Source: Escherichia coli (GTDB taxonomy: Bacteria > Pseudomonadota > Gammaproteobacteria > Enterobacterales > Enterobacteriaceae). From it: DNA of 64,000 nucleotides. The stretch's first letter is position 1. Every line of letters begins with the position of its first letter. The position numbers and the translations under genes are program-made. The stretch is from assembly GCF_003019035.1 (NCBI RefSeq), contig NZ_CP027447.1, one strand, 5' to 3'. The notes under the pieces were generated by a model. It searched no databases. It saw nothing but the letters and a program-made list of their open reading frames with translations, and had not been told where the DNA came from. Of the stretch, positions 6,234 through 63,642 are shown piece after piece.

Positions 6234-6687
6234 CTGCTTCCTCCTGTTTGGTGAGAGATGCCAGATAATCCACCAGTTGCTGCACGCTTTGCGGGTCGTG
6301 GCTGTTTAGCTCGAAAATCGGCTCTTCGAAGCCCGTCTCAAGCAATAACTTTCGCGTTGCGGCGACGTCAGCATCCGGCATGTCCGTTTTACTGATGACG
6401 GCGATTTGCCGTTTGCTGACGCCAATATCCAGCAACCCGGCAGGCAACCGACTTTCCGGGTCATTCGCGCCGTGGACATAGATCAGCATGTCCACATCCT
6501 GTAGCGTGGTAATTAAGGCGTGATACCAGCGGGGATGGCTGAAATATTCACCCGGCGTATCAATATCGCCCTTATCATTAAATTCCACGGCCTGTGTTTT
6601 TCTGGCGAGGGTATAATTCCCCTGCAACGCATTAAATAACGTTGTTTTTCCTGCCCCGACGGTACCCACAAACGCAATTCGTTTCAT
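6208..6687 (-). CDS. eutP: Ethanolamine utilization protein EutP (P-loop GTPase/acetate kinase)
   Basis: 159-aa ORF with Walker A GTVGAGKTT; operon context. Confidence 0.92.
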   Translation of the reverse strand: MKRIAFVGTVGAGKTTLFNALQGNYTLARKTQAVEFNDKGDIDTPGEYFSHPRWYHALITTLQDVDMLIYVHGANDPESRLPAGLLDIGVSKRQIAVISKTDMPDADVAATRKLLLETGFEEPIFELNSHDPQSVQQLVDYLASLTKQEEAGEKTHHSE

Positions 6688-6699
6688 GAATGCCTCGTA

Positions 6700-7035
6700 T
6701 TAACTTTTGGTCATTTCACAAAGCGTATAATTTAATAAGCGTCCTAAACCACTGACGGTTTGTGATAACGCTTCTTCTACTGCGCCCACCGAGCCATAAA
6801 TCACCAGCGCGCCGCTAAAACGGTCGAGAAAACCGATATGCACATCGGCGGCTTTCAACGCTAAATCACCGGCGATCATCGCCGTTTCTCCGGGAGTTAG
6901 CGTCATAATGCCGATTGCGCCCGCATCCGGAACGCCGATTTTCTTCGCCAGTTCCTCGCCGGGATGCGCGATGAGATGCGCCAGTGTGACCTGTTTACCG
7001 GGCACAAATTCCTGAATGATGCGTTCTTTATCCAT
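6700..7035 (-). CDS. eutS: Microcompartment shell protein EutS (permuted BMC domain)
   Basis: Start placed at [10 protein letters not shown] giving 111 aa (ORF track extends to 7107); first gene of the eut operon. Confidence 0.9.
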
Positions 7036-7400
7036 GAGTCGCCGCCTGTGAAAAACTTTCGTGTATCGTGACAATTTTTCGTCAGAGTAAATAACAAAAT
7101 TCGGCAAGCGCGTTTAAAAGGTGAGGTAGATCACTAAGAATGGAGAGATATTTTATGTTAAGAAAAAAAACATACATTGTATGAATATAAACGGGAACCA
7201 ATAAGTTTTGTTTATCATATGTACTACAACATCTTTTAATAATCCCTCGAATCACCCGACGTTGTATTTTTAATAATTAGCAGAATACATATTTAATGTA
7301 CTGTTGTATTCTGAAAAATATTATTATCTTCACCCCATTTAAAATACATCTTACGCGATGATTTTATTCAGGAAATAAATAAAATGGATGGATCCCTGGA
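7036..7400. promoter_or_regulatory. Divergent AT-rich control region: eut operon promoter (minus strand, upstream of eutS) and promoter/leader of the inserted glycosyltransferase gene (plus strand)
   Basis: Non-coding, very AT-rich stretch between divergent genes; the eut main promoter lies upstream of eutS in enterobacteria; exact -35/-10 elements not assigned. Confidence 0.5.
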
Positions 7401-8471
7401 ATGAAAATTCACTACCTTGTCACCACCCTCGAAGCGGGAGGCGCTGAATTTGCGATTCCTGATATTGTGACTACTCTGCAAGACCTTGGTCATGAGGTGA
7501 AAATTTATGTCTGTGAACCCCGCGATATGGGAGCAGCGCCTCGTCTGGAAGCCGCTGGATTATCCTGGTGTTTATTATCAAATCGGCGGCGTTCTGAACC
7601 CATGCTTGTAGCTGCTTATCTGGCAAAAATCATTCACGACAAACCCGATCTCATCTGGACTTCGTTAAGTTGGGGGACTCGTATTGGGCAATGGGTCGGC
7701 CGGCTTATGGGCATTCCTGTTATCAGTTTTAAACATAGCGCCAGCGTAAAACCAGCGACCTGGCGTATGCGCAACATGTCTCGTTTATGGATAGGAGATT
7801 CTGAAACCGTAGCTCAATACCTGCATGAAACCATGTTGATCCCGAAGCAACAAGTGCTGTGCTGGCCCTTTTTTCAGGCGAATCCGCAAGCTGCCCAAGC
7901 GCAAAACTGGGACGGGAAATCAGTTTTACAATTAGGCTCTGTTGGACGCCTGCATGAAGTTAAAAATTACGCTGGATTAATTACAGCACTCGCTTCGTTT
8001 GTAGATAAAAACCCGCAATTGCGCTCGCGAATCCGATTAACCATTCTCGGTGAAGGGCCTGAACAGGAAGCATTGCAAAAAACCATAACGCAACACGCGT
8101 TGGAGGATGTGGTTTGTTTAGCGGGTTTTTCTGCGGATGTCGAAAATTTTCTTGCCGGATTACATGTCTACATCCAGACCTCCCGCTACGAAGGGATGTG
8201 CCTCGCTGCACACGAAGCCATGAATGCAGGGCTTGCAATCATCACGACTCCTGTAGGCGAACTTAAAGAATCGGTAATAGATGGTCATACTGGATATACG
8301 CTTAATGGCGAGCTAACGCCAGCGCTGGAGGGTGTGCTTAACCGTATTTTAAGTGAACCCGAAGAATTAGAACGCTATGGGCAAAATGTGCGGCAGTATG
8401 TATTAGCGAAGTTCAGCCATGAAAATTTTGTCCAGTCTGCAATCAACATCGTCAATAGACTTATTCACTGA
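7401..8471 (+). CDS. GT-B fold glycosyltransferase (GT4-like), accessory gene
   Basis: 356-aa ORF; C-terminal retaining-GT signature (SRYEGMCLAAHEAMNAGLAIITTPVGELKESVIDGHTGY, an E-x7-E-like motif); no signal peptide; weak ribosome-binding site. Confidence 0.8.
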   Translation: MKIHYLVTTLEAGGAEFAIPDIVTTLQDLGHEVKIYVCEPRDMGAAPRLEAAGLSWCLLSNRRRSEPMLVAAYLAKIIHDKPDLIWTSLSWGTRIGQWVGRLMGIPVISFKHSASVKPATWRMRNMSRLWIGDSETVAQYLHETMLIPKQQVLCWPFFQANPQAAQAQNWDGKSVLQLGSVGRLHEVKNYAGLITALASFVDKNPQLRSRIRLTILGEGPEQEALQKTITQHALEDVVCLAGFSADVENFLAGLHVYIQTSRYEGMCLAAHEAMNAGLAIITTPVGELKESVIDGHTGYTLNGELTPALEGVLNRILSEPEELERYGQNVRQYVLAKFSHENFVQSAINIVNRLIH

Positions 8472-8484
8472 ACAAGGCAGAAAA

Positions 8485-9387
8485 ATGAATTGCTATACCA
8501 CCGATCTTTGGCAGATAGGCATTGTTCAGGCCCCCATACAGCACATTGTTGCTTCTGGCAGTTTGGATGGCTTCAGGATTAAATGGATTACCCCGGATAA
8601 ATCACTCACTTTTCTTGCCGATCCTTTCGGTCTGTGGAAAAAAGGGGTTCTCTATCTTTTCGCGGAATCCTACGATTATCGGACTCGTCGTGGCGATATT
8701 ATCGCTTATAAGCTCAATGCTGACCTGGACGTCATTGAGCAACGAACTGTGCTACAAGAACCCTGGCATCTTTCTTATCCTTTTGTGTTTGAAGCCGATA
8801 ACGAAATCTGGATGTTACCTGAAGGATATAAATCAGGTACGCTAACGTTGTACCGCGCTATAGAGTTTCCCTGGCGATGGGAAAAGGTGCCAGATTTTTC
8901 ATTCCCTTGCGCTGCCATTGATGCCACCCCCTTTTACGCACAAGGAAAATGGTGGATGTTTTATACTCCCCCACTACCAAAGGCAGCCAGGACGGATACG
9001 TTAATGCTCGCTCATGCCCCCCATTTTATGGGGCCATGGGAAAACGTCCTGCAAACTGCCGCGCACAGGAATAAAAGCGGCGCGCGTATGGGCGGAACAC
9101 CATTTGATCATGATGGGCAAATTTTCTTACCAACACAAGATTGCAGCCGAACCTACGGTGGCGCATTGCAGATGCTGACACTAGACCCACAACGTTTATT
9201 AACTCCAGAATTTGCTGCCTCTGTGCGCCTGGAAGTGCCTGCAAGTGCCGCGCCTTTTATTGCTGGCATGCATACGCTTTCTGGCGTTGGCGACGTAACA
9301 TTCATTGATGCCAAGCGACACCTTAAAGGTTCGCCTCAGCGATTATGGGTGGATTTGCAGCGGCGGATACAGAAGTGGATCAGCTAA
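8485..9387 (+). CDS. Uncharacterized protein, probable five-bladed beta-propeller glycoside hydrolase/phosphorylase-like (GH43/GH130-type fold, inferred)
   Basis: 301 aa from the ATG at 8485 (ORF track starts earlier at 8419); N-terminal blade-like motif FLADPFGLWKKGVLYLFAE with conserved Asp/Glu and many Trp/Tyr/Phe; no signal peptide; 13 nt after the glycosyltransferase stop. Confidence 0.65.
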   Translation: MNCYTTDLWQIGIVQAPIQHIVASGSLDGFRIKWITPDKSLTFLADPFGLWKKGVLYLFAESYDYRTRRGDIIAYKLNADLDVIEQRTVLQEPWHLSYPFVFEADNEIWMLPEGYKSGTLTLYRAIEFPWRWEKVPDFSFPCAAIDATPFYAQGKWWMFYTPPLPKAARTDTLMLAHAPHFMGPWENVLQTAAHRNKSGARMGGTPFDHDGQIFLPTQDCSRTYGGALQMLTLDPQRLLTPEFAASVRLEVPASAAPFIAGMHTLSGVGDVTFIDAKRHLKGSPQRLWVDLQRRIQKWIS

Positions 9388-9390
9388 ACC

Positions 9391-9416
9391 GCTTACCCTG
9401 AATATTCAGGGTAAGC
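9391..9416. terminator. Perfect 26-bp palindrome (GCTTACCCTGAATATTCAGGGTAAGC), likely bidirectional terminator between the convergent accessory gene and maeB
   Basis: Exact inverted repeat read directly from the sequence, between two converging stop codons; no strong U-tract. Confidence 0.5.
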
Positions 9417-9434
9417 GTGAGAGTTAAGAATGAA

Positions 9435-11714
9435 TTACAGCGGTTGGGTTTGCGCTTCAACCACAGCCAGCGCCACCATGTTGACGATACGACGTACCGA
9501 TGCGATCGGCGTTAACACGTGAACCGGTTTCGCCACGCCCATCAGCACCGGACCGACAGTCACACCTTCCGAGCTGGAAACGCGCAGTAAGTTGTAACTA
9601 ATGCGGGCAGCTTCCATGTTCGGCATCACCAGAATATTAGCGGAACCTTTCAAAGGGCTGTCCGGCATACGGTCGTTGCGAATCGCTTCCACCAGCGCTG
9701 CATCGCCGTGCATTTCACCATCAATCATCAGTTCTGGCGCACGTTCCCTGACCAGTTCCAGCGCCTGACGCATTTTGCTCGACGACGGGCAGTCAGAAGA
9801 ACCAAAGTTGGAGTGCGACAACAGAGCCACACGCGGTTCAATACCAAAACGACGAACAGTTTCTGCCGCCATCAAGGTGATCTCCGCCAGCTCTTCTGCA
9901 TCAGGCTCATCATTGACGTAGGTATCGGCAATAAAGGTGTTACCACTCGGCAACAGCAGCGCGTTCATTGCACCTGCGGTGTGAACGCCATCGCGATAAC
10001 CAAAGACATTTTTCACCACGCTAAAGTGTTCATGATAATCGCCCACCGTACCGCAAATCATTGCATCGGCTTCGCCACGCTGAACCATGATCGCGCCGAT
10101 CACTGTCGGGTTACTGATCAGCGCACGCTGCGCCTGCTCCTGAGTGACACCGCGACGCTTCATGATCTGGAAGTATTCGGTCCAGTACTCTTTAAAGCGC
10201 GGATCGGATTCGTTATTGACGATCTCAAAATCAACACCCGCTTTGATCTGCAAGCCCAGTTTCTGAATGCGCATTTCGATCACGTTCGGACGACCAATAA
10301 GAATCGGTTTCGCCAGTCCCAGCGTTACCAGTTCCTGAGTGGCATGCAGAACGCGCGCCTCTTCCCCTTCCGGCAGAACGACGCGCTTCGGCGCTTTGCG
10401 AGCCTGGGAGAAAATCGGCTTCATAAACAGGTTGGTTTTGTAAACGAACTCCGTCAGCTTGTCGATGTAGACGTCGAAATCAGCAATCGGACGCGTCGCC
10501 ACGCCAGACTCCATCGCCGCTTTCGCCACCGCTGGAGCGATCTTAACGATCAAGCGCGGATCAAACGGTTTTGGAATGATGTATTCCGGACCAAAGCTCA
10601 GATCCTGATCGCCATACGCTGAAGCCACCACTTCACTCTGTTCCGCATGGGCCAGTTCTGCAATCGCGCGTACTGCCGCCAGTTTCATCTCTTCGTTGAT
10701 GGCGGTTGCGCCAACGTCCAGCGCGCCACGGAAGATAAACGGGAAGCAAAGGACGTTGTTCACCTGGTTCGGGTAGTCGGAACGGCCGGTACAGATGATG
10801 GCATCCGGACGCACTTCTTTCGCCAGCGGCGGCAGAATTTCCGGTTCCGGATTCGCCAGCGCCAGGATCATTGGTGCCCGAGCCATTTTCTTCACCATTT
10901 CCTGGGTCAGCACTTTCGGGCCGGAACAACCCAGGAAAATATCCGCGCCTTCAATCACATCATCGAGGGTACGTTTGCCGTCATCCACCACCGCATATGC
11001 GGCTTTGGTTTCCGCCATATTTGGCTCACGGCCCTGATAGATAACGCCTTTTGAATCACAAACCACGATGTTATGTTTTTGCAGCCCCAGCGCCACCAGC
11101 AGGTTCATACAGGCGATTGCTGCTGCACCCGCGCCGGAAACCACCATCCGCACGTCGGAGATGTTTTTCTCCACCACGCGCAATCCGTTGAGGATGGCGG
11201 CAGTGCTGATAATTGCCGTGCCGTGCTGATCGTCGTGGAATACTGGAATATTCATCCGCTCGCGCAGTTTCTGTTCAATATAGAAACATTCTGGCGCTTT
11301 AATGTCTTCGAGGTTGATGCCGCCGAAGGTCGGTTCAAGCGCGGCGACGACTTCAATAAATTTGTCCGGGTCGAGTTCATCAACTTCAATGTCAAATACA
11401 TCAATCCCGGCGAATTTCTTAAACAGAACGCCCTTGCCTTCCATCACCGGTTTGCCTGCCAGCGCGCCAATGTTGCCTAACCCCAGCACCGCCGTACCGT
11501 TAGAGATCACCGCCACCAGGTTACCACGCGCGGTATATTTGTAGGCTTTTAACGGGTCTTTTTCGATTTCAAGACAAGGTGCGGCAACGCCTGGTGAGTA
11601 GGCCAGCGCCAGATCGCGCTGCGTTGCCAGAGGCTTGGTTGGAGAAACCTGGATTTTCCCTGGAACTGGAAATTCATGGAAATCAAGTGCACTTTGTTTT
11701 AACTGGTCATCCAT
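9435..11714 (-). CDS. maeB: NADP-dependent malic enzyme MaeB (malic enzyme domain fused to PTA-like domain)
   Basis: 759-aa ORF starting [28 protein letters not shown]. Confidence 0.96.
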
Positions 11715-24211: not shown

Positions 24212-24573
24212 AACAACCTCTCTTATAATTATGGGTATTCTACGGAAACAATATACCGTGGTGAAGCTAATTTACTCGATTGCTGCGATGACTACCTCCG
24301 GGGGACAAACCTTATGTAAATACTATGGTCCTGCGGTGATAATTTGTATGTGATACACAGCAACATTTCGAGATATTCATACGGCATCTAATACTGATTT
24401 AATTCTGGTTAAAATACAGACAGATAACAAGATGAATATTCTTAATGTTTACGTTAAAAATGTTTAATGTTATTTAATAGTTGTTAATTTGAATACTTCG
24501 ATAATGTTATATTTCCTGATAATCATTTGCAGGCAAAATGTTTTCACCCTTAAATGAGTATTTATTCTCATAA

Positions 24574-24948
<375 letters not shown>

Positions 24949-62813: not shown

Positions 62814-63123
62814 CGGTTACCTTCTCCACTTTCACAGAACATAACGGCACCTCGCTGTCGGATGCTTTTGCTCTTTGGGATTATCAAAGCGGCAGATATT
62901 CTTTCATCTTAAATTTTACGTCTTTGTCCTGACTGATGTTTATCCTGTTTGGCTGCGAAATAAATATAAAATTAATACATATGTTTTAATGATGTATTTT
63001 TATAAATTATTTTCCACATGAATTTTAATAAATTTAATCTATTCCTTTATACGCAATACATTTACTTTCCTCTTTTGATGATCTTAAATGTCTTATTTTT
63101 CGTAATGTGTATAACAAGGAATA

Positions 63124-63642
63124 GTGATGAAATTTAAAAAATGTCTTCTGCCTGTGGCAATGTTAGCGTCATTCACTCTGGCAGGATGCCAGTCAAATGC
63201 TGATGATCATGCCGCCGATGTTTATCAAACCGATCAACTGAATACCAAACAAGAAACTAAAACCGTTAATATTATTTCCATTCTTCCCGCAAAAGTTGCC
63301 GTAGACAACTCCCAAAATAAACGAAACGCACAAGCCTTCGGCGCGCTTATTGGTGCAGTCGCTGGCGGTGTAATCGGCCACAACGTGGGGTCTGGCAGCA
63401 ATTCCGGAACGACGGCAGGTGCAGTTGGCGGCGGAGCTGTTGGCGCGGCAGCGGGTTCTATGGTGAATGATAAAACCTTAGTGGAAGGTGTTTCTCTAAC
63501 GTATAAGGAAGGCACCAAAGTGTATACCTCCACCCAGGTGGGTAAAGAGTGCCAGTTTACGACAGGTTTAGCCGTTGTTATTACCACGACGTATAACGAA
63601 ACGCGTATTCAGCCAAATACCAAATGTCCTGAAAAGAGCTAA
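63124..63642 (+). CDS. yfgH: Outer membrane lipoprotein YfgH (glycine-zipper)
   Basis: 172-aa ORF with lipobox LAGC and Gly-rich zipper (GALIGAVAGGVIGHNVG). Confidence 0.9.
   Translation: MMKFKKCLLPVAMLASFTLAGCQSNADDHAADVYQTDQLNTKQETKTVNIISILPAKVAVDNSQNKRNAQAFGALIGAVAGGVIGHNVGSGSNSGTTAGAVGGGAVGAAAGSMVNDKTLVEGVSLTYKEGTKVYTSTQVGKECQFTTGLAVVITTTYNETRIQPNTKCPEKS

Follow-up and report, generated by a model that had tools for sequence, protein, structure and literature searches.

The eutS–glycosyltransferase spacer of an Escherichia coli genome as a probable composite of an unchanged eut promoter and an alternative, cassette-bearing haplotype

We found that the intergenic region between eutS and a glycosyltransferase gene, in a 64-kb window (the whole stretch of DNA that was analysed), is probably an ordinary composite spacer in which an unchanged eut promoter is joined to an alternative haplotype that bears a gene cassette. 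In the first-pass annotation, positions 7108–7400 had been described as an AT-rich, non-coding spacer of about 290 bp between divergent eutS and glycosyltransferase genes. Gene calls on the minus and plus strands, respectively, bear out the divergent arrangement of the two genes across the spacer, and windowed GC content confirms the AT-richness: the stretch is non-coding, has 29.4% GC as compared to 52.4% across the window and ranks in the top three AT-rich 293-bp stretches of the 64 kb. The length did not stand. PGAP places the eutS start at the ATG at 7035, and this N-terminus is kept in Salmonella and Klebsiella; the spacer is therefore 365 bp long (7036–7400, 31.5% GC) and not about 290 bp. 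On the same grounds we rejected 7107 as the eutS boundary, which is merely the end of a TTG-extended open reading frame. Two other 293-bp stretches are equally AT-rich (26.6–28% GC), one at approximately 24300–24650 and one at approximately 62830–63200; when coordinates are mapped onto the SCU-301 annotation, the former is the yffB/ypfM intergenic region, near acrD. The locus is laid out as follows.

6700–7035, minus strand: eutS, a BMC-domain protein of 111 aa (Pfam BMC, 6e-12; PGAP on the identical locus)
7036–7152, minus strand: native eutS upstream region, 117 bp, 40% GC, 100% identity to K-12
7153–7191: diverged homologue of the native spacer, with 25–28 of 39 positions (64–72%) common with cassette-free alleles
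7192–7400, plus strand: cassette-specific AT-rich leader, 209 bp, 29.7% GC, seen only with the cassette
7401–8471, plus strand: GT4-family glycosyltransferase gene, 356 aa (Pfam Glycos_transf_1, 1.4e-29, and Glyco_transf_4, 4.6e-9; PGAP)
8419–9387, plus strand: GINT1_N-family gene, 322 aa (Pfam PF24793, 4e-35)
9390–9417, minus strand: native maeB terminator hairpin with 14-bp perfect arms, common to K-12 and also the convergent end of the cassette
9435–11714, minus strand: maeB

The glycosyltransferase start at 7401 agrees with the MKI... starts of its relatives, and the two cassette genes overlap by 53 nt. When we compared the spacer with K-12 MG1655 base by base, we found that 7036–7152 is identical (117/117) and that there is no MG1655 match beyond 7152. 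Collinearity with a K-12 derivative and with a B2 strain likewise stops at the junction 7152/7153 and resumes at 9381, the junction being 9380/9381. The cassette-free eutS–maeB spacer is 292 bp long, and 122 bp there replace window positions 7153–9380 (2228 bp). The proposal that 7108–7400 belongs to an insertion thus fails for 7108–7152, which is native (100%), and holds for 7153–7400, which is not K-12 sequence; the leader had also been described as shared with the eut promoter, and this applies to 45 bp only (7108–7152) and not to the rest. The comparison supports the view that 7153–7400, or strictly 7192–7400, is absent from K-12 and travels with the cassette. The replaced 122-bp segment has 27.0% GC as compared to 27.4% for 7153–7400, so AT-richness is a trait of this position in every haplotype and not a mark of insertion.

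The left edge of the haplotype is not equally sharp in all strains. By BLAST, some cassette-free alleles align as far as 7168 (97%, 133 bp) or 7191 (90%, 156 bp). When 7153–7191 was aligned with four cassette-free alleles, collinear global alignment gave z values of 4.3–5.3 against shuffles, with an anchor chosen post hoc, and the segment ends with the 11-mer ATGAATATAAA, which is common to cassette-free alleles. For 7192–7283 against cassette-free alleles, z values were 0.6–1.1, indistinguishable from chance, and when the leader was aligned locally, neither the K-12 variable segment nor the Salmonella spacer gave a significant match. MAFFT alignments had first suggested homology up to approximately 7283; segment-wise tests confine it to 7153–7191, and we rejected the longer extent.

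To determine how widely the haplotype occurs, we surveyed 5426 complete E. coli genomes, 5423 of which match the flanks, and found the cassette in approximately 89. The sequence 7153–9380 is present at 99% identity or more in 83 genomes, one of them a strain named ST648, and a second allele (88.5%) is present in 6 genomes, represented by MS 21-1. In Salmonella, Klebsiella and Yokenella, no cassette was found between maeB and eutS, and maeB lies directly upstream of eutS. The composition of the spacer had been taken as a sign of horizontal acquisition; the accessory status of the cassette is borne out by this distribution (approximately 89/5426, with outgroups lacking the cassette), and AT-richness as its marker is not, given the 27.0% GC of the native DNA. 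In NZ_OW967003.1, an IS1 transposase lies within the cassette match span and the match is in two pieces. Between the two cassette alleles, identity changes along the locus as follows.

eutS: 99.7% identity
7036–7134: 100% identity
7135–7152: 56% identity
7153–7283: 70.5% identity
7284–7400: 82.9% identity
glycosyltransferase gene: 90.8% identity
second (GINT1_N-family) gene: largely deleted in the MS 21-1 allele
maeB terminator: 81.5% identity
maeB: 99% identity

Over the whole leader the two alleles are 76% identical. For the glycosyltransferase gene, dS between alleles is 0.31 and dN/dS is 0.145, as compared to a dS of 0.067 for maeB and 0.013 for eutS in the flanks. This old divergence between near-identical core flanks argues for allelic replacement by homologous recombination and not for mobile-element insertion. 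We rejected insertion of an IS, transposon, integron cassette or island, as there is no recombinase, terminal repeat, target duplication or attachment site: the cassette contains just two glycosyl-transfer-related genes and no integrase, transposase or recombinase, no terminal or flanking direct or inverted repeats and no target duplication were found at 7153 and 9380, and no tRNA or ncRNA was found near the cassette. At the right junction, CAGCTAA (9381–9387) is common to cassette-free strains and includes the stop codon of the second cassette gene, so the junction is flush with the gene end. In a search for a donor, no non-E. coli glycosyltransferase was closer than 68% aa identity, and the members read from the cluster at 90% identity or more were all E. 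coli, save one 82-aa fragment labelled Bifidobacterium. In the MS 21-1 allele (L004 3000–4917, compared with window 7153–9434), the glycosyltransferase gene is intact with 91% aa identity, and the divergent block begins at 7135 in the CRP-site flank and takes in the maeB terminator. We propose that the DNA from 7153 onward would be an alternative haplotype of the eutS–maeB spacer bearing a two-gene cassette, which most likely reached some E. coli lineages when homologous recombination brought it in from a diverged relative; the crossovers would presumably fall within the conserved eut promoter on one side and inside or close to the maeB terminator on the other. The eutS–maeB spacer exists in several haplotypes, with recombination boundaries at the CRP site.

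In an alignment of the spacers of four genera, we found a conserved eut promoter block that contains a CRP site.

7054–7138, minus strand: cross-genus conserved eut promoter block (MAFFT of E. coli, Salmonella, Klebsiella and Yokenella spacers)
7117–7137, minus strand: CRP site ttAGTGAtctaccTCACCttt, centred at 7127, 92 bp upstream of the eutS ATG

In the eutS sense the block reads CTTAGTGATCTACCTCACCTTTTA...TTGCCGAATTTTGTTATTT...TTGTCACGAT, and its distal end is CTTAGTGATCTACCTCACC (window 7120–7138). Conservation among the four genera stops at 7138, where the Yokenella maeB terminator adjoins. Table 1 of a preprint (PMC12871828) includes the sequence ttAGTGAtctaccTCACCttt among novel high-affinity CRP sites and assigns it to eutS, with an estimated Kd of 9.0 nM and a site centre at NC_000913.3:2575900; the published sequence is identical in this window. 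The junction 7152/7153 is 15 bp past the CRP site and 25–26 bp from the site centre. Because control by EutR and CRP is common to these genera (review PMC5821096), the EutR operator and core promoter should sit proximal to 7138, and we infer that both lie inside the conserved block. In the accessible literature we found nothing precise on a mapped eutS transcription start site, on the EutR operator or on H-NS at eutS. For the eutS–maeB spacer of K-12 (L001 737–1028), a binding peak of the RpoS holoenzyme has been reported from genomic SELEX (PMC5493296). The conserved eut elements lie mostly outside 7108–7400 and all are intact. Since cassette-free DNA is equally AT-rich and the conserved eut cis-elements are untouched, we would not expect direct rewiring of eut regulation by the cassette. 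An indirect effect on eut expression, which could act via H-NS, bending of the CRP flank, divergent transcription or the loss of co-directional maeB, is suggested by proximity but is made less likely by the equally AT-rich native segment and by the lack of conservation past the CRP site. The native eut promoter DNA is now set apart from cassette-associated DNA to the base, and the intact control elements remove the main reason to expect altered ethanolamine regulation in cassette carriers.

We presume that 7192–7400 would serve the glycosyltransferase gene as promoter, operator and 5' UTR. Two features lie in its distal part.

7281–7313: palindrome CAGAATACA-N15-TGTATTCTG, a candidate operator (inverted-repeat search)
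7384–7404, plus strand: six-codon uORF (MDGSLE and stop), with a TGA that overlaps the start codon of the glycosyltransferase gene at 7401 (ATGA)

Short direct repeats had been noted in this DNA, and both pairs are present, TTGTATT at 7262 and 7304 and AATACAT at 7284 and 7343; their excess over composition is just marginal, as 13 repeated 7-mers were observed and 6.6 expected (p approximately 0.04). The hexamer TGTATT/AATACA, a motif chosen post hoc, is present at four leader positions (7263, 7284, 7305 and 7343) as compared to 0.49 expected. The named repeats belong to the palindrome. Its arms are identical in the MS 21-1 leader, which is 24% diverged, while 5 of the 15 spacer bases differ; a 9-bp inverted repeat of this kind arises in 10% of shuffles and alone is not above chance. 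As matches we rejected the known operators of LexA, TyrR, Fur, ArgR, Lrp, RcsAB and PhoP, none of which fits the palindrome, and an RcsAB-like stretch at 7236–7249 is not kept in the second allele. The uORF has an SD-like AGGA (7370–7373) 10 nt upstream, the glycosyltransferase gene's own Shine-Dalgarno sequence is weak, and a 5-codon form of the uORF is retained in the MS 21-1 allele. Neither the palindrome nor the uORF is significant individually.

The several TATA-like hexamers described in the first-pass annotation do not amount to a promoter signal beyond composition. A consensus scan of 6950–7500 found no promoters or terminators (0 promoter-like sites as compared to 1.8 expected), and in a PWM promoter scan the top score of 10.3 did not exceed the shuffle mean of 11.0, so that no promoter was called. 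A dS of 0.31 corresponds to a neutral identity of approximately 75% by Jukes-Cantor arithmetic; against this expectation, 7153–7283 (70.5%) looks unconstrained and the last ~120 bp of the leader (82.9%) look mildly constrained. The block 7278–7345 is conserved between cassette alleles, which suggests where the glycosyltransferase promoter may lie. The last ~120 bp would hold a weak promoter, probably activator-dependent or silenced, for which the palindrome would be an operator candidate, and the short uORF would couple its translation to the glycosyltransferase start; the remainder of the leader looks like nearly neutral AT-rich spacer. Judged from these sequence features, the leader most likely combines a weak promoter, either regulated or silenced, with an operator and with translational coupling at the start.

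Xenogeneic silencing by H-NS has been described for genes of horizontal origin with AT-rich DNA upstream (Navarre 2006, Lucchini 2006). The leader has 27% GC, 12.5 TpA steps per 100 bp and eight A/T tracts, and binding of H-NS to it would be plausible from this composition. The high-affinity H-NS motif TCGATAAATT has no match with up to two mismatches in 7153–7400; the only such match is at 7082, in native DNA.

We considered whether the haplotype could have arisen in the opposite direction, such that the DNA up to approximately 7283 would be native spacer in diverged form and the common 292-bp spacer would be the product of a deletion of 7284–9380 between short CAG repeats. When 7153–7283 was compared with the 122-bp segment, collinear global alignment gave z values of 2.2–3.6 (control –1.4), TAATAATTAGCAG (7271–7283) resembles K-12 TAATATATTGCAG, which lies directly before the shared CTAAAC, and the right junction reads ...TCAG/CTAAAC, where the stroke marks the break. 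However, the whole of this signal comes from 7153–7191: 7192–7283 alone stays at the chance level given above and its local alignment is not significant. The cassette is also missing in three outgroup genera, and the sole 'intermediate' genome, HS-02, carries 616 bp of unique low-complexity sequence that is probably an assembly artefact. We find such a deletion distinctly unlikely, and acquisition of a diverged haplotype by recombination is the reading we prefer. In E. coli HS-02 itself (L005 1690–2310), the AT-rich leader is followed by 616 bp of A-rich sequence where the cassette would be; as this low-complexity sequence is absent from other complete genomes, we rejected HS-02 as an evolutionary intermediate. 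A change in eut regulation in cassette carriers was also weighed, whether through an H-NS filament over the eut promoter, through changes in CRP-induced bending or in the contacts of alpha-CTD, or through an added divergent promoter that would either compete or be coupled by supercoiling. In its favour, the junction 15 bp past the CRP site is where Footprint-seq puts CRP-induced hypersensitive positions (PMC12871828), the MS 21-1 allele diverges from 7135, within the 21-bp CRP site, the leader is TpA-rich (12.5 per 100 bp as compared to 4.0 for the window, with 27% GC), and the cassette takes co-directional maeB away from directly upstream of eutS. Yet the same position in cassette-free strains is equally AT-rich (27.0% GC), conservation among the genera that share EutR and CRP control does not reach past the CRP site, where Yokenella has a terminator, and no change affects the core half-sites for CRP or any proximal element. 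We therefore regard altered eut regulation as unlikely.

The leader could also be imagined to encode a structured cis-regulatory RNA (a riboswitch or attenuator) or a small RNA, since a long non-coding region (209–365 bp) lies before a biosynthetic gene, the upstream regions of relatives are long too, and a 9-bp hairpin is predicted at 7281–7313 in addition to the uORF at the glycosyltransferase start. Against this, no Rfam match was found at E≤1 in 6600–9600, or at the gathering threshold in five homologous loci and across the 64-kb window; the leader does not fold with unusual energy (z = –1.45, with 18 of 200 shuffles folding as well), the leader sequence is not conserved with other genera, and the two cassette alleles diverge at a near-neutral rate, all of which makes an RNA element extremely improbable. 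A bolder combination of the same features would be an exchange hot spot pinned on its left at the eut CRP site, with the divergent promoter of the cassette using the CRP site, the palindromic operator and the uORF. We judge this very improbable; if it were true, expression of an uncharacterised surface-glycosylation module in the gut would depend on catabolite and ethanolamine status. The composite spacer, with the eut promoter unchanged and the leader serving the cassette, remains our preferred account.

Taken together, the parts of the spacer can be compared with several known systems. The region 7036–7152 matches the main eut promoter (PI) of Salmonella and E. coli, which is EutR-activated and CRP-dependent, base for base, including the CRP site and the conserved block; the difference is that just 45 bp (7108–7152) of the stretch first noted belong to it. 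The leader resembles H-NS-silenced acquired DNA in its 27% GC, its TpA-richness, its A/T tracts, its weak promoter-like hexamers without a clear promoter and its position upstream of an accessory cassette with 45.7% GC (window 52.4%), and differs from such DNA in that 7153–7400 has no high-affinity motif and is matched in AT-richness by the native segment in whose place it stands.

The same gene pair occurs in the same order, with 62–68% aa identity, in Pluralibacter, Shimwellia, Serratia sp. and Acetobacter thailandicus (L008–L012), and there too the genes are preceded by long upstream regions that exceed them in AT content. In contrast to the E. coli cassette, the module in those genera is sited away from eut and maeB, and its upstream regions have ordinary Shine-Dalgarno sites and no uORF; no sequence similarity was found between the leader and these upstream regions. 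Rosenbergiella, Bombella and Saccharibacter, taxa associated with insects and flowers, have more distant relatives of the glycosyltransferase. The uncharacterised GT4/GINT1_N pair, whose carriers include the strain named ST648, would have a regulatory region of its own. As for how the haplotype is set into the chromosome, the locus resembles allelic spacer replacement at core-gene hot spots, both in the step from 100% identity to unalignable sequence at the boundary and in the presence of alleles at a dS of 0.31 between core genes at a dS of 0.01–0.07.
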